This document shows, piece after piece, positions 6,386 through 38,983 of a stretch of DNA of 41,730 bases. Under the pieces are notes generated by a model. It saw only the letters and a list, made by a program, of their open reading frames with translations. It was not told the origin of the DNA and ran no database searches. The stretch covers positions 1 to 41,730 of the IMG/VR virus record IMGVR_UViG_3300025389_000038; one strand, 5' to 3'. The position numbers and the translations under genes are program-made. The DNA comes from a virus. Its lineage: Duplodnaviria; Caudoviricetes. Position 1 is the stretch's first letter, and every line of letters begins with the position of its first letter.

Positions 6386-6608
6386 AAAGAAACGCCCTAA
6401 CCTTTCTGTTGGTCGAGGAGAAAAACAGTCCGTTAGGGCGGGGGGTGGGCTTACCGCAAAAGGCCGCAAGAAGTACAACCGTGCAACTGGCAGCAATTTG
6501 AAAGCCCCCCAAAAATCTGGACCACGACACAAATCGTTTTGCGCCAGAAGCAAGAGTTGGACAGGGGAGAGGGGCAAGGCAGCACGTAAACGCTGGGGGT
6601 GCAGATAA
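6378..6608 (+). CDS. Small basic phage protein (DUF6321-like)
   Basis: GGLTAKGRKKYN..NLKAP..KSFCARS..RWGC motif; very K/R-rich. Confidence 0.7.
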   Translation: MPRKKRPNLSVGRGEKQSVRAGGGLTAKGRKKYNRATGSNLKAPQKSGPRHKSFCARSKSWTGERGKAARKRWGCR

Positions 6609-8641
6609 TGGCTGGTGTACAAGAGCAAAAGAAGGACTACAAAGTCGCCAAAGACTTTGATGGCGTAAACACGAAAGCCAACCGCACCTCGATCAAAGAG
6701 ACCGAGTTTTCGTGGCTAGAAAATGTCATGCCCATCGGTCACGGCAACATGCGTACTGTGCCTGCGCCCACCGCCGTGGGTACGATCACGTTTGGCGCAA
6801 CTGTCGTGTACGCTGTGTACGGCAACCTTGGCACATCCAATTACTACATTGCTTTCTTGTCAGACGGCAGCGCCACCGCTGTCAACACCGGTACAAATGC
6901 CACAACAACCGTGGCCTCTGCCGGCACGTTTTCTACGTCTGGTGTCCAAGCCTGCCAATGGAACAACACCCAGATTTGTATCATTGACCCGACCAACGGA
7001 TATTTCCAATGGAACGGCACAACGCTCATCAAGATTGGCTCGTTGTCGTTTAGCCTTGGCCTTGTCAACTACCCAACACAAACGTCACTCACTTTGTCTG
7101 GTGTTGCCATCACCGGTACTGCCGGTCAATTTTCTTGCACCGCCGTCACCGCTGGTACTTTGATTACCGGCATGGCAGTCACCATCACGGGCGTATTTAG
7201 CGGCACAGGCTCAATCAGCGGGTACAGCAACCCCACCTCGTACTACATCATTGCAACCAACGGAACAAGCACTTTTACGTTGTCTGCAACGCTTGGCGGT
7301 ACTGCCATCACAACCACAGCCGGTACGCCCACCGGATTGACTTACACCTTGACAGGCGCTGGCTACGCTGGCTCTGTGACAGCAACAGTCGCCGCGCCAG
7401 CTACAGGCGGCACAACCGCTGTAATTTCGGTGGCAACCAACGGATACGTCATCACGAGTGTGAGCGCTTACGGCACAGGTTTGACCACAGGTAGCAACTA
7501 CCTCACAACTCCAGCCGTGACAATTACAGGTTCAGGGGTAGGGCAAACCATTACCGCCACGGTCATCAGTCAGCCCGGCACAGCTATTGCTTCGTTCTCA
7601 GGCAGGATTTGGGTTGCCAACGGCAGGACGCTGTACTACACCGCAGCCGGCACAAACAACGATTTTTACAGCCCTTCTGCTGGCAACATTGTGTTCAACG
7701 ACGAGACTTTGATTGGCAACATCACTCAGTTAGTGAGCGCTAACAACTTCTTGTATGTGTTTGGCGTGGACAGTATCACGGTCATCTCAGACGTTCGCAT
7801 TAACAGCACCACCGGCACAACGCTGTACACCAACACCAACATCAGCGCCAGCGTGGGTTCTGACCAGCCTTACGCTGTAATGCCGTACTTCCGCTCCATT
7901 GTGTTTATGAATCGCTACGGCATGTACGCCTTGGTGGGTTCAACCACATCCAAGATCAGCGATGCGCTGGACGGATTGTTTCCTTACATCGACTTTACAA
8001 AGCCTGTGAGCGCAGGCCAAGTCTTGATTTATAACATTTTGTGCGCGTGTTTCTCGTTTTATTACACCGGAACATCTGGTACGCAGGGTGCACCTCAGTA
8101 CATCCAAGCCGTGTTCTTTGACAAAAAATGGTTTTTTACGTACCAAGGCGCGGTCAAGTATGTTGTGTCAATCCCTGTCAACGGTCAAGCCACGCTGTAC
8201 TCAACCACCGGCACAGACTTGCAAGTCATGTACCAAAGTTCGTCGGCTTCAATTGCAACCAAGACGCAAAGCGCTTTGTACAGCATGGGCAACGTCATTC
8301 GTGACAAGCAAGCCTTGAAGTGGGGTGTCGAGGCGATCTTGCAGGCCAACACCGGCAACAATTTGACCGTGGTGACAGACAGCGAATCAGCGTCTTCACC
8401 ATCAACCACCGTCAACAACTTTACTTTGGTGTCGTGGATAAACAACAGCGCAATAACTGTGCCGTGGGTCAACAACAGCATTGCAACCGTGACATGGGGC
8501 AACCCGATCATTGGGTACAACTTGTATCGCTATGACGCTGAGATGTGGGGCAAGTACATTGGCCTGACAATCACCAGCAACAACCCAAATTACATCATCT
8601 CAGGGATGCAATTTGAGGCAGCACAGAGAGCGAAGTTCTAA
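6608..8641 (+). CDS. Tail nozzle / tail tubular protein B-like (packaged DNA stabilisation) with a T/G-rich insertion
   Basis: ~677 aa, beta-propeller-like repeats (FSGRIWVANGRTLYY, ANNFLYVFG, KISDALDGLF); lies before the putative internal virion genes. Confidence 0.65.
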   Translation: MAGVQEQKKDYKVAKDFDGVNTKANRTSIKETEFSWLENVMPIGHGNMRTVPAPTAVGTITFGATVVYAVYGNLGTSNYYIAFLSDGSATAVNTGTNATTTVASAGTFSTSGVQACQWNNTQICIIDPTNGYFQWNGTTLIKIGSLSFSLGLVNYPTQTSLTLSGVAITGTAGQFSCTAVTAGTLITGMAVTITGVFSGTGSISGYSNPTSYYIIATNGTSTFTLSATLGGTAITTTAGTPTGLTYTLTGAGYAGSVTATVAAPATGGTTAVISVATNGYVITSVSAYGTGLTTGSNYLTTPAVTITGSGVGQTITATVISQPGTAIASFSGRIWVANGRTLYYTAAGTNNDFYSPSAGNIVFNDETLIGNITQLVSANNFLYVFGVDSITVISDVRINSTTGTTLYTNTNISASVGSDQPYAVMPYFRSIVFMNRYGMYALVGSTTSKISDALDGLFPYIDFTKPVSAGQVLIYNILCACFSFYYTGTSGTQGAPQYIQAVFFDKKWFFTYQGAVKYVVSIPVNGQATLYSTTGTDLQVMYQSSSASIATKTQSALYSMGNVIRDKQALKWGVEAILQANTGNNLTVVTDSESASSPSTTVNNFTLVSWINNSAITVPWVNNSIATVTWGNPIIGYNLYRYDAEMWGKYIGLTITSNNPNYIISGMQFEAAQRAKF

Positions 8642-24299: not shown

Positions 24300-24953
24300 T
24301 CATGCCACCTGCATCAGTCTAATAACGCGCTGCATTTTTGCACCATGCGCAGGGTATGCAATCAAAGGAATATCCTTATTCCAGCAAGCCCGGCAGCCAC
24401 TACATTTTCCCTCATGCTCATAAGCCCGGCATAAACTAGAACCTGCATGATCCGTATAGGTGGCAGCATCTGGCCCAATAACGCTGCCATGCAGGCCCGG
24501 TATATATTCACCGGTAATGCTATCGGAAGAGAATCGCACCATTACATTGTCCAATTGACGCATGGCATCGAACACCATACGGAATTTTGGGAATTTATGC
24601 ATTCTAGTAGGCAGCCAATGCTTACACCACGGGGTCTGGGTCATCACTTCTAGAATTTTCTCTGCTAGCGCTAAAGTGTAGACATCACCGGAATCGAACC
24701 AGCGAAAGTATCGATCCCGTTCTAGTTCTGCCACCATATCATCGCACCATGCTTCGCGCTGCCAATCGTTCCGATTAAATTCCCGTGGTGCTTTAACATT
24801 CGGATAATTGTAATTACCTGTAGTGGCATAGCAACCCTTACAAGCATCAACTAGAACACCCGGACTTGCAATAGAACCAGGGCATGTCTGAATAGCTTGC
24901 AAAGACCACGAACGGATCCCGTCTAGTTTAGAAGTTACAGATATTTTTTGCAT
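24300..24953 (-). CDS. GP88-family protein (Fe-S / radical-SAM-like)
   Basis: SWSL.A..TCPG..CKGCYA, FRWFDSGD, HWLPTR, N..VRFS, C.A....GKCSGCRACW..IAYPAH. Confidence 0.8.
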   Translation of the reverse strand: MQKISVTSKLDGIRSWSLQAIQTCPGSIASPGVLVDACKGCYATTGNYNYPNVKAPREFNRNDWQREAWCDDMVAELERDRYFRWFDSGDVYTLALAEKILEVMTQTPWCKHWLPTRMHKFPKFRMVFDAMRQLDNVMVRFSSDSITGEYIPGLHGSVIGPDAATYTDHAGSSLCRAYEHEGKCSGCRACWNKDIPLIAYPAHGAKMQRVIRLMQVA

Positions 24954-25174
24954 GGATAACTCTCCTTTGTTGATTACATGATGATAACGCGACAACTACA
25001 GTATCCGTTGACTGATTTACATATATTTACAATTGTAATATTTGCGGGACTAGTTCTATGATAGACTATATACTAACACTATCAATAATCTATGATAATA
25101 GTCTTAGTATCTGTATAGGAAACAGTCAATCGGTCAAAGGGTAATGAGGGGTAGATTTCACTCTCCGCTCACAG

Positions 25175-25274
25175 CATAGTTAGTACTCACTCACTTAGCT
25201 ATGTTAGTTAGTGCCCACTTACATAATTGTCAGTTAGCACTCACTTACATCTAAGTTAGTTGGTACTTACTTTG
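25175..25274. repeat. Array of four imperfect palindromes matching the SlmA-binding consensus
   Basis: Cores GTTAGTACTCAC (25179), GTTAGTGCCCAC (25207), GTTAGCACTCAC (25233), GTTGGTACTTAC (25259); spacing 28/26/26 nt. Confidence 0.7.
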
Positions 25275-25347
25275 GGCAGCTAGGTCTGTAGTGTGTGACC
25301 CCCACATTGCTCCCACCCCCAAAAAAATAATCTGTTTCTGGTAAACA

Positions 25348-25356
25348 TGCTATTAT
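25348..25356 (+). promoter_or_regulatory. Putative extended -10 promoter for the packaging/late arm
   Basis: TGcTATTAT upstream of the first + strand gene. Confidence 0.4.
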
Positions 25357-25385
25357 TGGGTTATTGGACTATAAGGGGATATAGA

Positions 25386-25604
25386 ATGTTAGAGATAAGT
25401 GTAGAGCGTAGAGTGCCTATGCCTGCTTTGCGGCGGGTATATGCGTATCCTTACGAGAGCATGGCTATAGGGGACAGTTTTACTGTGCCTAAGACGGACA
25501 GGGCGAAGGTGTTGAATGCCAACTACAGGGCATCCAAGAGGCTTGGCATACGGTTGCAGAGCAAGACTCAGGATGATGTAGTCAGAACATGGAGGGTTTC
25601 GTAA
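25386..25604 (+). CDS. Small putative DNA-binding protein
   Basis: YPYESMAIGDSFTVP..VRTWRV motif seen in small phage proteins; AAGGGG SD. Confidence 0.65.
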   Translation: MLEISVERRVPMPALRRVYAYPYESMAIGDSFTVPKTDRAKVLNANYRASKRLGIRLQSKTQDDVVRTWRVS

Positions 25605-25798
25605 TGACGAGTCTGCTGTGGTTAGAGGAAGATGAACTCAGGGCGATGTGTATTGCCTTGCTGGGTCAACTCGCCACGGCTAAGGACGTTATGGACGAGG
25701 TATACGCCTATGGATACAAACAAGGATTTGCAACAGGACTTGCTCAACTCACGCATTCGTCTGAAAAAAGAGATGCAGAGGGCATTGTCTTGCATTAG
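25604..25798 (+). CDS. Hypothetical protein
   Basis: GGAGG SD; TAATG coupling; YAYGYKQG motif. Confidence 0.55.
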   Translation: MTSLLWLEEDELRAMCIALLGQLATAKDVMDEVYAYGYKQGFATGLAQLTHSSEKRDAEGIVLH

Positions 25799-25934
25799 TC
25801 CGGCTTCTAAACGGGCGTTGGCTCGTGAGTGGGAGGACAAGTACTCAGCAATCTTCTACAAAGAGTTGATTGCCTGTGCCAAGAATAGGGTTGTGGCGAC
25901 TACCATAGCTGATTGGAACTTGGAGAAGATGTAA
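25710..25934 (+). CDS. Hypothetical protein
   Basis: GAGG SD; TAATG coupling to next gene. Confidence 0.5.
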   Translation: MDTNKDLQQDLLNSRIRLKKEMQRALSCISPASKRALAREWEDKYSAIFYKELIACAKNRVVATTIADWNLEKM

Positions 25935-26374
25935 TGGCAAACGGTAACCAACAGGCTATGCTGGATTTGATTCGCCGCCAGCAGTACGAAAAGCAACGAC
26001 AAGAGTTGTTGAAGCGCAATATGGCATACGCTCATCCTGATTGGCAAAGTCAGATGGCTAAATTGTCTCCAGAGCAAGAACAGGCGTTCCAGCAATGGGT
26101 GCAAGCCAACAATGTTCCGTTCAACCCTAAAGACAAATACCCTGATTACGACATGCGTGGGTATTACTTGTCTTTGCAAAAGGGTGGCGCTCCGCAGGCG
26201 ACAGTCAATCCTATAGACAAGCAATTACATTACCCAGATACTTTTAAAACCCCATACCATGAGTCGTTTAGTAACGAGTCACAGTGGGCTACTAATGGCG
26301 CTCCGTCGTGGCAAGGGGAAAAATTAGTCTCACCCAAAGGGGAAGTAATTTATGAGACTAAGCCCGAACAATGA
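25934..26374 (+). CDS. Hypothetical protein immediately upstream of terminase
   Basis: GGAG SD; DYDMRGYY and HYPDTFKTPYHESFSNESQW motifs; ATGA overlap with terL. Confidence 0.65.
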   Translation: MANGNQQAMLDLIRRQQYEKQRQELLKRNMAYAHPDWQSQMAKLSPEQEQAFQQWVQANNVPFNPKDKYPDYDMRGYYLSLQKGGAPQATVNPIDKQLHYPDTFKTPYHESFSNESQWATNGAPSWQGEKLVSPKGEVIYETKPEQ

Positions 26375-28122
26375 AATTTGATCTACAGAAGTTCTACCGC
26401 TTTTGTGCGGCACTCAAGATTGAGTCAAAAGAAGACGGCCTGATACCGATGGCAAAGCCGTTGGGAACTCAGACATATGTGATGGAAGAAATTGCCAAGG
26501 GGTTAAAAGATGACGTTCATTTCTTTGTCATTCTCAAAGGCCGTCAACTGGGTATCACAACAATATCGCTCGCTCTCGACCTCTACTGGCAATTTACTCA
26601 CCCCGGCTGGCAGGGTACGCTGGTGGCAGATACAGAAGAAAACCGAGACATGTTTCGTTCAACTCTGGGTATGTACCTCGAAGGTCTCCCCAAAGAGTAC
26701 AAGATTCCTCTCGTTGCCCACAACCGAAATCAAATGGTTCTCAAAAACCGTTCCCGGATTTTCTACCAGATTGCTGGAAACAAATCTCGTCTGGGGCAGG
26801 GCAAGGCTATTACTTACCTTCACGGTACAGAGACTGCCTCATGGGGAAACGAAGAAGGTCTCGCTTCCCTTCTAGCCTCTCTTGCTGAGAAAAACCCTGA
26901 GCGGCTCTACATGTTTGAGTCCACGGCGCAAGGCTTCAACATGTTCCACGATATGTACAAGACCGCCAAGTTTGCCAAGACGCAACGAGCCATCTTCTGC
27001 GGCTGGTGGCGCAACGAGTACTACTCGCTCGATGCCAACTCCTCCATGTACAAAACGTACTGGGACGGCAAGTTGACCGGCGAGGAAAAAGAGTGGGTGA
27101 AGGAAATTAAGAAACTCTACGGCGTGGAAATCAACTCACGCCAGATGGCATGGTGGCGCTGGAAGATGGCTGAAGGCATCAAAGATGAGAGCCTGATGTA
27201 CCAAGAGTTCCCACCCACAGAAGACTATGCCTTTGTGATGACCGGCACTTCTTTCTTCTCCAACAGCCGTTGCACAGAAGCTGCCAAGGTTGCCAAGAAA
27301 AGAACACCTGACTGCTACCGGTATGTGTTTGGACAGAACTTCCAAGACACAGAGGTGCTGCGCTCTACAGAGAGGCTGGGGACGCTGCGTGTGTGGGAAG
27401 AACCTGTCGATCAAGGCTACTACGTCATTGGCGCAGACCCTGCCTACGGCTCTAGCGATTGGGCTGATCGCTTTGTCATCCAAGTGTTTCGCTGCTACGC
27501 AGATGGCCTCGATCAAGTGGCTGAGTTTGCAACCGCTGATCTCAACACCTACCAGTTTGCGTGGGTGATCGCTCACTTAGCCGGCGCGTACAAAAACTCC
27601 ACCATGAACTTGGAAGTGAATGGTCCGGGTCAAAACGTGCTGGCTGAAATACGCCGCATCCGCAGCCAAGCCACCGCCACCAGCGGTCAGATGGGCAAAG
27701 ACTTGCGAGATGTGCTGGGCAGTATGCAAAACTACATCTGGCGCAAACTCGACAACATGGGTGGCATCTCCAACTCTATTGGTTTTATGACAACACATCA
27801 AACCAAAGAGCGGATGATGAACTACATGAAAGACTTTTTTGAGCGCGGCATGATGAACATCTACAGCATGGACTTGCTGGAGGAGATGAAAACCATCGTG
27901 CGTGAAGACGGCTTCTTGGGCGCTCCCGGACGCAGCAAGGATGACAGGGTAATTGCAACTGCTTTGGCTACCGTGGCGTGGGCAGAGCAGGTACAGCCTC
28001 GTCTGATTGCCAACTACGTCACCCGCGAGAAGCAGGCCAAAGACGCAGAAACCTCAGATCAAGACATGTACGTGGGCAAAGTGGCAGCAAACTATTTGGC
28101 AAAAATAGGACTCAGACAATGA
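26371..28122 (+). CDS. terL: Terminase large subunit
   Basis: Walker A ILKGRQLGITT, Walker B-like YLHGTE, ESTAQG coupling motif, nuclease YVIGADPA, EVNGPG, DDRVIA. Confidence 0.92.
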   Translation: MKFDLQKFYRFCAALKIESKEDGLIPMAKPLGTQTYVMEEIAKGLKDDVHFFVILKGRQLGITTISLALDLYWQFTHPGWQGTLVADTEENRDMFRSTLGMYLEGLPKEYKIPLVAHNRNQMVLKNRSRIFYQIAGNKSRLGQGKAITYLHGTETASWGNEEGLASLLASLAEKNPERLYMFESTAQGFNMFHDMYKTAKFAKTQRAIFCGWWRNEYYSLDANSSMYKTYWDGKLTGEEKEWVKEIKKLYGVEINSRQMAWWRWKMAEGIKDESLMYQEFPPTEDYAFVMTGTSFFSNSRCTEAAKVAKKRTPDCYRYVFGQNFQDTEVLRSTERLGTLRVWEEPVDQGYYVIGADPAYGSSDWADRFVIQVFRCYADGLDQVAEFATADLNTYQFAWVIAHLAGAYKNSTMNLEVNGPGQNVLAEIRRIRSQATATSGQMGKDLRDVLGSMQNYIWRKLDNMGGISNSIGFMTTHQTKERMMNYMKDFFERGMMNIYSMDLLEEMKTIVREDGFLGAPGRSKDDRVIATALATVAWAEQVQPRLIANYVTREKQAKDAETSDQDMYVGKVAANYLAKIGLRQ

Positions 28123-36641: not shown

Positions 36642-38983
36642 TGTTTGCATCCAAAGACTTGTTCTTTACGCCACCCGGCGGTGGCTACACACTTAATCGC
36701 AGCTTGCGGTTGCGTTCGTCTGCGTCTGCTTATTTAAATAGAACTTTTGGCACTGCAACATCTCAATCAATTTTTACTTTTTCTGCTTGGGTAAAACGAG
36801 GAAAACTTGGTGCTACGCAAACTTTATTTGGTTGCAGCACCTCTCAGTTTGATGGGATTTTATTTAATACATCAGACCAATTAGTTGTTTACAGCAATGG
36901 CGGTGTTGGTTTAACAACTTCTGCCGTTTATCGTGACCCATCTGCTTGGTACCACCTTGTTTATTTGCATAATGGAACATCAAATACTATTTATATTAAT
37001 GGTGTTAGTGTTGGAACGGGCACTTTTTCTGAAACAATTTTAAATACAGCCAACTCACATATTATTGGTCAAAACAGTAGTTCAAATTATTTTGACGGTT
37101 ATCTCACCGAAATTAATTTTATCGACGGTCAAGCGCTGACACCATCATCGTTTGGCTCATTCAACTCAATAACAGGTGTGTGGCAACCTACCAAGTACGC
37201 AAGTACTTATGGGACTAACGGGTTCTATCTGAACTTCAACAACAATGCGTCCACCACAACGCTTGGCTACGATACTTCTGGCAACAGCAACAACTGGACA
37301 ACCAACAACATCTCTCTGACTGCTGGTGCAACATACGACAGCATGACAGATGTGCCAACGCTGACGAGTGCGACTGTTGCTAATTATTGTGTGTTGAATC
37401 CGTTAAATCACCTTGGAACAATTACGCCTTCCAACGGAAACTTGACTGTTATTGGGGCTGCTGACAACGCTCAAGTAAGTGGCACTATTGGTATGGATAC
37501 GGGTAAATGGTACTACGAACACACCATCACCGCCATTGGTGGAGAGCAATCGGTTGGAATTGGAGGTTCTCTTGCTCCATATTATGTTGGAGGAGGGTCA
37601 ACCCAATACGGTTACTATGCATTCAACGGAAATAAATATAACAATTTAACAAACACAGCATACGGGGCAACATTCACAACTGGCGACGTTATCGGTGTTG
37701 CTTATGATGCTGGCGCAGGGTCGTTGACGTTTTATAAAAACGGCGTGTCTCAAGGTGTTGCTTTTACGGGCATCACGGGAACAATGTACCCTCTTGTTGC
37801 AAGTAGAGCGACAGGTGGAACAAACCAAAGTAACCTTAACTTTGGTCAACAGCCGTTTGTTTACACCCCACCCACAGGTTTCGTGGCGCTGAACACATAC
37901 AACTTGCCAACGCCAACAATCAGCAATGGTGCTAACTACTTTGCTGCTACGACCTATACGGGTAACAATACTTCGCCAACATCAATTACTAACGGAGGAA
38001 ACAACACAATTGGAAAAACTTTTTATCCAGATTTAGTTTGGATTAAAGATAGAACAAGTGCATACAACCATGTGTTGCAAGACTCTGTTCGTGGTACAGG
38101 GGCATCTAAAAAATTAGCTTCGAATTTAACAGTAGCAGAAGGTGATGCAAGTACATTAGCGCCATATGGCGATGTTTCTGCATTTAATTCAAATGGATTT
38201 TCTTTAGAAGCAGGTTCAACTGATTCAAGACAAACTAACGCTAGTGGCGACGCTTATGTTGCTTGGCAATGGCAAGCAGGCGCTGGCTCATCATCATCCA
38301 ACACCAACGGCTCTATCACATCTACTGTAAGTGTTAATGCTACGGCTGGATTTAGCATCGTCACCTACACAGGCACAGGCTCTAACGCTACCGTGGGTCA
38401 TGGATTGGGTGTCCAACCTAAAATGGTCATCATTAAACAAAGAAATGCTGTAACAAATTGGGCGGTAAATCACTCTGGCATTTGGTCTACTGGTCAAGGC
38501 GTGATGTATTTAAATTTGACCAATGCAAGCGCTAATGATGCAACTTTCTGGAACTCTACAAACCCAACATCTTCTGTAATTTACTTAGGAACAAATGCTT
38601 CTGTAAACGGAAGCACTGGAACTTTTGTCGCTTACTGCTGGTCAGAAGTAGCAGGCTTCAGCAAGGCGTTTTCATATACAGGGAACGGAAGCACAGACGG
38701 AAGTTTTGTTTATTTAGGATTTCGTCCAAGAATGGTGTTGATTAAACGAACAGACTCAACAGGAAACTGGTATATCTGGGATACATCAAGAAACACATAC
38801 AACGTAGTTGGCGAAGAACTTTATCCAAACTTGTCAAACGCTGGATCAACAAATACAGACCTTGATTTGTTGTCAAACGGTTTCAAGATGAGAAGCACGG
38901 CGGCAGATTTCAATGCAAATGGCGGCAGCTATATTGGATTTGCTTGGGCAGAGAACCCTTTTAAACAATCTTTAGCGAGGTAA
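36641..38983 (+). CDS. Receptor-binding LamG/SPRY lectin tail protein, copy 2 (different N-terminus; possibly an assembly chimera)
   Basis: Identical to copy 1 except the first ~24 codons. Confidence 0.7.
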   Translation: MFASKDLFFTPPGGGYTLNRSLRLRSSASAYLNRTFGTATSQSIFTFSAWVKRGKLGATQTLFGCSTSQFDGILFNTSDQLVVYSNGGVGLTTSAVYRDPSAWYHLVYLHNGTSNTIYINGVSVGTGTFSETILNTANSHIIGQNSSSNYFDGYLTEINFIDGQALTPSSFGSFNSITGVWQPTKYASTYGTNGFYLNFNNNASTTTLGYDTSGNSNNWTTNNISLTAGATYDSMTDVPTLTSATVANYCVLNPLNHLGTITPSNGNLTVIGAADNAQVSGTIGMDTGKWYYEHTITAIGGEQSVGIGGSLAPYYVGGGSTQYGYYAFNGNKYNNLTNTAYGATFTTGDVIGVAYDAGAGSLTFYKNGVSQGVAFTGITGTMYPLVASRATGGTNQSNLNFGQQPFVYTPPTGFVALNTYNLPTPTISNGANYFAATTYTGNNTSPTSITNGGNNTIGKTFYPDLVWIKDRTSAYNHVLQDSVRGTGASKKLASNLTVAEGDASTLAPYGDVSAFNSNGFSLEAGSTDSRQTNASGDAYVAWQWQAGAGSSSSNTNGSITSTVSVNATAGFSIVTYTGTGSNATVGHGLGVQPKMVIIKQRNAVTNWAVNHSGIWSTGQGVMYLNLTNASANDATFWNSTNPTSSVIYLGTNASVNGSTGTFVAYCWSEVAGFSKAFSYTGNGSTDGSFVYLGFRPRMVLIKRTDSTGNWYIWDTSRNTYNVVGEELYPNLSNAGSTNTDLDLLSNGFKMRSTAADFNANGGSYIGFAWAENPFKQSLAR

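Follow-up and report, generated by a model that had tools for sequence, protein, structure and literature searches.

Why a freshwater phage should carry, within one short non-coding gap, four tandem palindromes resembling the binding sites of a bacterial cell-division regulator is the question raised by this locus. The regulator, SlmA, which keeps bacteria from dividing across their own DNA (nucleoid occlusion), is described in E. coli as a strong antagonist of FtsZ when bound to its sites (SBS), with two dimers occupying each site (PMC3573117, PMC4423959). We analysed the whole 41,730-nucleotide stretch of IMG/VR record IMGVR_UViG_3300025389_000038 (hereafter the window) and its relatives for the reality of the array, the protein that reads it and the use that the phage may make of it.

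The array and its genomic setting

The four 12-bp cores begin at 25179, 25207, 25233 and 25259, with a core-to-core spacing of 28/26/26 and with 1, 3, 2 and 3 mismatches to GTGAGTACTCAC. Scored over 20 bp against the published consensus, and with no strand assigned, site 1 (25175..25194, core 25179-25190) agrees at 13/20 positions, site 2 (25203..25222, core 25207-25218) at 16/20, site 3 (25229..25248, core 25233-25244) at 17/20, the best match in the genome, and site 4 (25255..25274, core 25259-25270), the weakest of the four, at 12/20. Loose matches to the 12-mer are not enriched genome-wide (17 observed, 14.55 expected), but four cores within 100 bp occurred in 0/500 shuffles of window positions 1-36640 and in 0/5000 shuffles of the intergenic region. 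The array occupies the largest gap between annotated ORFs, 432 bp of non-coding DNA (24954-25385) which separates a leftward operon from the rightward packaging operon. As contigs from other freshwater runs reproduce it with few or no changes (X10 pieces cover 25167-25287 with 0 changes and X19, from 2022, covers 25193-25931 with 5), it is not an assembly artefact. The original prediction of four SlmA-like cores with these spacings and match counts, non-coding and placed between divergent operons, was thus reproduced by the re-scan, the shuffles and the ORF map. Its further claim that the phage encodes no TetR-like protein also stands, as the SlmA helix-turn-helix profile matched no six-frame ORF of the window, and the PHROGs (57 ORFs) and Pfam (26 ORFs) annotations of the window include neither a TetR nor a known FtsZ inhibitor.

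The start of the record is repeated near its end (1621-1920 and 36681-36980, an offset of 35,060 bp), which indicates a genome unit of about 35 kb that the window over-runs. Among the products of the window are terminase, portal, capsid, tail, RecT/RecE-like, endolysin and Rz-like spanin proteins; of the annotated phages, the two closest to it are uncultured and come from springs (70-71% in TerL). Its DNA is contained in freshwater metagenome runs, most of them from 2017 and possibly from one campaign, and there was no RNA dataset among the runs listed as containing it. Outside the array, a fifth site (16/20) lies inside terL at 27561-27580. Of 69 distinct terL copies compared at that position, including one near-identical record of the same phage, it scores best, and most copies score 11-12. 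Two strict 12-bp cores at 7456-7475 and 7729-7748 (12/20 and 14/20) fall inside a 680-aa gene (6599-8641).

To the left of the array, the first gene of the leftward operon belongs to the GP88 family (PF17338; 24300..24953, minus strand; PHROGs/Pfam). GP88-family or similarly placed uncharacterised genes (phrog_1392, 1617 and 2554) often flank the motif opposite the terminase, such a flank being seen at 24300-24953 of the window and at L171, L175, L178, L179, L191 and L210. To the right lie a conserved 72-aa protein (25386..25604, plus strand), whose confident model is small and alpha/beta, showing neither a TetR fold nor a significant PDB match (E<=0.001), and the terminase large subunit gene terL (26371..28122, plus strand; PHROGs, TerL relatives). 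Between array and packaging operon runs a family-wide element of a C-tract and an A-tract (25293..25329, plus strand), matched in 103/162 sequences, many of them truncated or redundant, and invariant in the alignment. We infer that this element is a putative packaging-initiation (pac-like) signal. The preceding ~100 bp are hypervariable, and family loci share a GGG ~22-25 bp upstream of the C/A-tract element as well as a hypervariable spacer of similar length. In the window it is this spacer that holds the array, and its left edge is marked by a loosely conserved C/T-rich element (25159..25172, plus strand), recognized by eye from the alignment and the upstream regions of relatives. In other families, terS is preceded by comparable elements made up of a G/C-tract and an A/T-tract. 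A Sigma70-like promoter candidate for the leftward operon (25058..25085, minus strand) lies ~90 bp from the array; it is a consensus match only, of a kind found 3 times against 1.8 expected. An extended -10-like element before the packaging operon (25348..25356, plus strand) was noted by eye and is similar in relatives.

Agreement with the SlmA-binding consensus

The appropriate benchmark for the array is the 20-bp extended site and not the 12-bp core. Against the published 20-bp consensus, SBScons (PMC4423959, 10.1101/264192), the natural E. coli sites SBS12 and SBS17, with sequences as given in PMC4423959 and the supplement of PMC4117426 (SBS17 also from the latter), each score 15. This level of proven natural sites is reached by window sites 2 and 3, with sites 1 and 4 below it. 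For the core, PMC3020112 reports that E. coli SlmA requires G1, T2, A4 and G5 and accepts any purine at position 3 and any pyrimidine at position 6. None of the four window sites fully conforms to this strict rule: all have T at position 3 of the left half-site, and sites 2 and 4 lack A4 in one half. Natural SBS12 also has T at position 3, SBS17 deviates more from the rule, and fully conforming cores are present in the relatives L009 and L088.

Sites neighbouring the pattern matches, collected with a mismatch limit only and no degenerate seed, show how the half-site varies. Over 408 half-sites, G1 was kept at 1.00, T2 at 0.98, A4 at 0.84, G5 at 0.82 and a pyrimidine at position 6 at 0.99, with G, T or A at position 3, and the flank reads GTWA. 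Except for T at position 3, this tolerance is that measured for E. coli SlmA in PMC3020112. The published consensus agrees with the phage-derived pattern in the flanks too, with the qualification that the consensus, although consulted only afterwards, was already known to us when the pattern was written.

The protein that reads the 20-mer

A 20-bp degenerate pattern derived from the window and its relatives has ~460 matches in GTDB, spread over many phyla. At 46/80 bacterial loci with the exact 20-mer (L287-L366; Actinomycetota, Acidobacteriota, Bacteroidota, Bacillota and others) there is a gene for an SlmA-type TetR protein with a helix-turn-helix motif of the TT...SEAxLYRHF type, in most cases ~150 bp or less from the site. 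Such a gene was found at 0/80 viral motif loci (flanks only, for loci other than the window), in 0/161 family sequences and at 0/80 metagenome loci. Judged by this gene context, the 20-mer in bacteria is an operator of SlmA-type TetR proteins. As none of these genes accompanies the viral loci, the binder of the array is likely a host-encoded SlmA-type TetR.

That the array consists of sites for a host SlmA-type protein, as had been proposed, is well supported by the sequence evidence, namely agreement with the 20-bp consensus, unseeded neighbours that are degenerate at the same positions, the identity with a TetR operator, the absence of a phage TetR and a gain and loss independent of neighbouring phage proteins (below). 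We therefore hold it very probable that such a protein binds the array, and consider SlmA itself a likely binder, with somewhat less confidence. The existence of a cross-phylum TetR subfamily with this 20-mer as operator suggests that SlmA arose from such a local repressor.

Distribution in viruses, linkage to terL and a possible role in packaging

The 20-mer pattern occurs in an estimated ~970 IMG/VR stretches, as extrapolated from 9 of 64 parts, and a reversed, equally palindromic control in 4, an excess of ~240-fold. Counted over 118 distinct seeds, at least two strict cores lie within 300 bp in 60 cases, and in 72 cases an additional loose site stands no more than 150 bp away, which is 25-fold over flanks. 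The 76 distinct seeds with long flanks comprise 47 arrays and 29 single sites, and one (1/76) lies inside an ORF of at least 100 aa. In larger phages there are also mostly single 20-bp sites that precede strong sigma70-like promoters by 25-56 bp (L162, L165, L169, L171, L172, L192, L193, L240 and L241). For metagenomes, the estimate of ~510 is not a phage count, because several tandem matches are unrelated long tandem repeats without flank. No array was detected in 50,697 records of annotated phages, a set in which slmA-carrying hosts are well represented, or in annotated plasmids, both queried with few sequence variants (the phage records by BLAST), nor in three named relatives of an array-rich terminase family (DSL-LC05, RpY1 and MW202483). 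In chromosomes of the likeliest host order, a strict tandem pair was present in 1/401 genomes, against 16 for the reversed control.

Among viruses the arrays are tied to terL, which raises the possibility that host SlmA has an accessory, architectural task at the packaging start or genome end, where it would bend, shield or ratchet the DNA with little effect on division; IHF acts as such an architectural factor at lambda cos. Within 2.5-kb flanks, terL was found near 42/47 arrays and near 3/29 single sites, and the site is 5' of terL in 44/45 terL-bearing loci, at a distance of 364-2182 bp. The array-linked terminases span several PHROG families (as assigned for 91 proteins chosen from 136 listed plus neighbours), and reference terminases of these different families share 21-33% identity where alignable. 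Arrays often abut G/C-tract plus A-tract elements, and in unclassified metagenome contigs terL was present at 22/80 tandem loci, always downstream of the array.

The comparison of sister phages tells against an essential role of this kind. In a family set composed of the best 80 of 595 TerL relatives and the best 80 of 206 relatives of the 72-aa ORF, 67 distinct spacers were recovered, of which 6 hold an array of two to four sites, 2 hold one site and 59 hold none; the six include the near-copies L139 and L144, and a stricter PWM filter that dropped both gave 4/66. The array-bearing members are dispersed on a 72-column tree, where starred branches force at least 3 changes, though the columns are few. 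L086 and L087 share 97.3% identity in the 1503 bp compared downstream, and L144 and L143 share 92.8% across the region, yet each pair differs in the array, and of L158 and L161 (87.5% identity) one has sites and the other none. As near-identical sisters gain or lose the whole array, it is optional and independent of the adjacent phage proteins. Spacers of array-less sisters (L090, L095, L102, L106, L113 and others) hold other short repeats, some of which resemble decayed SlmA half-sites.

A pac or cos repeat would be expected wherever packaging proteins are shared; the array adjoins the conserved C/A-tract 5' of terL and is found in 6/67 spacers, and it is unlikely to be a terminase site. With 59/67 spacers lacking any site, and sisters with near-identical packaging regions differing in it, the array cannot be essential to packaging. 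Its spacings peak at 26-29 bp and not at whole helical turns, its residence in the largest non-coding gap could by itself explain the position, and terminus mapping from contigs gave no consistent end that would mark a packaging cut site. We regard SlmA as a packaging factor as an unlikely reading, if the best placed of the alternatives.

Other readings of the array

The place of the array between divergent operons also allows that host SlmA is co-opted for transcription, either as a regulator or as an insulator that separates early from late promoters. In V. cholerae, SlmA is reported to activate the chb promoter from a site in the promoter region (10.1101/141812), and about ten mostly single sites in larger phages lie 37-56 bp upstream of a -35-like box. 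The array of the window, however, overlaps neither promoter candidate, a promoter-like match stands near only 27/118 seeds and at no fixed distance, and in E. coli upstream sites are reported to have left reporter expression unchanged (PMC3573117). One site would suffice for such regulation, yet 60/118 seeds have two or more strict cores. This explanation appears somewhat less likely again than a packaging role.

It is improbable, in our estimate, that the array is read by some other host TetR that shares SlmA's recognition helix and that the phage would titrate or use as a switch. The exact 20-mer does lie beside SlmA-type TetR genes of many phyla. Such TetRs are, however, scattered local regulators, and the recurrence of the array in unrelated freshwater phages points to a widely conserved protein; the spanin and the Shine-Dalgarno use of the phage, set against the general traits of these phyla, also argue against Actinomycetota and Bacteroidota hosts.

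Very improbable is a phage-encoded binder (the 72-aa ORF, a 146-aa ORF at 25934 or the small terminase) with a coincidental likeness to SlmA sites. Repeats bound by small terminases typically lie beside pac-type elements, and the position of the array beside the pac-like element is of that sort, but the same 20-mer precedes unrelated terminases and the motif is a known TetR operator. The 72-aa protein has no TetR-like fold and is identical in L009, which has the array, and L087, which has none; binding by this protein or a terminase subunit, the outcome that the original prediction had named as speaking against it, is thereby made unlikely. Just as improbable is neutral low-complexity filler or a hairpin or cruciform in the hypervariable spacer, for although the array strand folds better than 200/200 shuffles (z -4.0) and sister spacers carry other low-complexity repeats, any tandem palindromes are expected to fold, the 20-mer is kept while spacer bases vary, its excess over the reversed control is large and Rfam gave no match.

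The host and its SlmA

Recognition by SlmA itself, the preferred reading, presupposes a host with slmA, and a slmA-carrying betaproteobacterium is the likely host. Shine-Dalgarno motifs precede 29/46 window genes against a background of 5%, and the Bacteroidota-type promoter motif is absent from the window; together with the spanin these traits fit a proteobacterial host, and the freshwater origin is the one other observation in its favour. None of the homology searches led to a host. TerL relatives were absent from GTDB contigs, homologues of the YqaJ nuclease and the endolysin were almost all metagenome proteins with one Pseudomonadota MAG among them, and for the endolysin a 48% match turned up in 1/401 genomes of the order, with those in annotated phages staying below 50%. 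RecT was found in 0/251 genomes of the class, and ESM Atlas matches were to viral clusters only. The terminase of L175, whose terminase family is array-rich, was matched in 5/301 genomes, best in G157 (70%), a single, uninformative case with no array and no slmA match, and the nearest isolates of its family are Ralstonia phages (52%). The host of DSL-LC05 is itself only predicted in PMC10611076.

We surveyed slmA, at the NCBIfam cut-off, around a Pigmentiphaga MAG (G001). The gene scored above the cut-off in 21/61 genomes of the G001 family and in 111/151 genomes of its order, the likeliest host order, which we take to be Burkholderiales; the latter tally includes G091, flagged as unpublished. 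In all 41 top-scoring betaproteobacterial copies (41/41) the recognition helix SEAALYRHF is that of E. coli and F65 and N102 are kept, and in 41/41 the E. coli residue R73 is replaced by L or I. In E. coli SlmA, R73 is reported to be needed for FtsZ regulation (PMC3573117). A search of the open-access literature found no functional study of SlmA in betaproteobacteria, apart from a passing mention in PMC7761207.

The chromosomes of the G001 family offer a further line of evidence. The 12-mer occurs in gidA, an origin-adjacent gene, with at most 1 mismatch in 18/21 slmA-positive and 0/38 slmA-negative genomes, with at least 3 mismatches in all 38 of the latter; two further genomes without a gidA match were dropped from the tally. 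When only genomes with the same REYS peptide are compared, the site is present in 16/18 slmA-positive against 0/13 slmA-negative genomes. In some genomes the codons for REYSL in gidA/mnmG (CGT GAG TAC TCA CTA/CTT) spell out a perfect SlmA 12-mer, for example at L420:836-855 and L425:893-912. On a quick gidA tree, in which the E. coli sequence is a mislabelled outgroup, the slmA-positive genomes are interspersed (11 changes, at least 2 of them forced), so that these rows are not independent but neither do they form one clade. Since the site is missing in 5/5 slmA-positive genomes elsewhere in the order, it is limited to the family. At the level of sequence association, this adds separate evidence that the motif is read by SlmA in betaproteobacteria.

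A 14-bp pattern gave 12 sites in E. coli (control 3), none of them between 0.6 and 2.6 Mb, and was not over-represented in 9 slmA-positive genomes of the order (17 sites against 25 reversed; 8 vs 13 and 9 vs 12). Of the chromosomal sites of the order, 13/15 were in the origin half (p 0.004), in a test that uses gidA as origin proxy, rounded lengths, assumed completeness and the positions of the actual sites only.

A possible effect on cell division

On the preferred reading, the array likely loads host SlmA onto phage DNA, with the result that the infected cell would divide later. Host SlmA would bind the four tandem sites with two dimers a site as in E. coli, and the DNA-activated protein would then break up FtsZ polymers, such that septation is delayed or kept off the phage DNA. 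As the phage replicates, its sites would come to outnumber by far the few strong ones on the chromosome, and the 26-29 bp spacing suggests side-by-side packing for dose rather than helical phasing. The benefit would resemble that of lambda Kil, an undivided cell, obtained without a phage protein; the location beside the pac-like element may just reflect free sequence in a compact genome. Work in E. coli lends the scheme plausibility, as tandem SBS on a multicopy plasmid are reported to block Z-rings cell-wide through SlmA (PMC3573117, PMC4117426), and colony formation to be blocked at ~4-fold SlmA with a two-site plasmid against 40-fold without it (PMC4117426).

Several observations weigh against this division model. 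The tie between arrays and terL (42/47) is not required by a pure dosage mechanism, window sites 1 and 4 are weaker than SBS12 and SBS17, and the 20-mer is also used by non-SlmA TetRs of many phyla. The loss of R73 from the betaproteobacterial copies, the ~4-fold extra SlmA that the E. coli block requires and the lack of site over-representation on chromosomes of the order count against it as well. The few variants queried gave no array in annotated phages, though coliphages and vibriophages might be expected to carry it if the trick were generally useful. A delay of division through SlmA loading, which the original prediction had also put forward, is thus a tentative proposal, which we favour over each alternative taken singly but do not hold as probable. 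The broader proposal, that many unrelated freshwater phages independently evolved a protein-free division inhibitor in the form of an SlmA-site cassette tracking host slmA, is conceivable and slightly more doubtful still.

Relation to known systems and significance

The chromosomal SBS of E. coli and V. cholerae share with the array the 12-bp core, the 20-bp consensus and the variable positions 3 and 6, and window sites 2 and 3 are nearer to the consensus than SBS12 and SBS17, although the array's sites for SlmA are predicted ones. The phage sites are non-coding and four in 100 bp, whereas chromosomal SBS are described as dispersed, lying largely within genes and missing from Ter (PMC3116907). 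The multicopy plasmids pHC534 and p2SBSK likewise place tandem sites on a multicopy replicon and are reported to delocalise active SlmA and block Z-rings. They are laboratory constructs in E. coli that prevent colony growth only with ~4-fold extra SlmA, whereas the phage array is natural.

Besides lambda Kil, T7 gp0.4 and DicB are phage protein inhibitors of FtsZ; in contrast to these, the array would act through a regulator that the host supplies and phage DNA activates. With Kil the array would share the outcome of an undivided host and also its dispensability, as Kil is described as dispensable and of subtle benefit (PMC3961180) and the array is patchy.

Two further kinds of element invite comparison. 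Autoregulatory operators of SlmA-type TetRs have the same 20-mer but overlap the promoter region of their own tetR, whereas the phage array has no cognate gene and lies off the promoter candidates. Repeats at pac and cos sites, such as the SPP1 pac boxes or lambda cosB with IHF, are like the array in lying next to a packaging-type element upstream of terL; unlike them, the array is not family-specific, not essential, not helically phased and common to unrelated terminases. We found no paper on SlmA sites in phage genomes in the open-access literature. The array is genuine and of a familiar kind, found in a new setting, and its function is a prediction.

The phage division inhibitors known so far are proteins, and recruitment of a host cell-cycle regulator by a cis-acting DNA array would be a different means of takeover. 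Such a takeover, if true, would be invisible to gene annotation, and arrays are present in hundreds of uncultured phage contigs. For uncultured phages the array could also serve to indicate the host, and it offers a handle on SlmA in betaproteobacteria.
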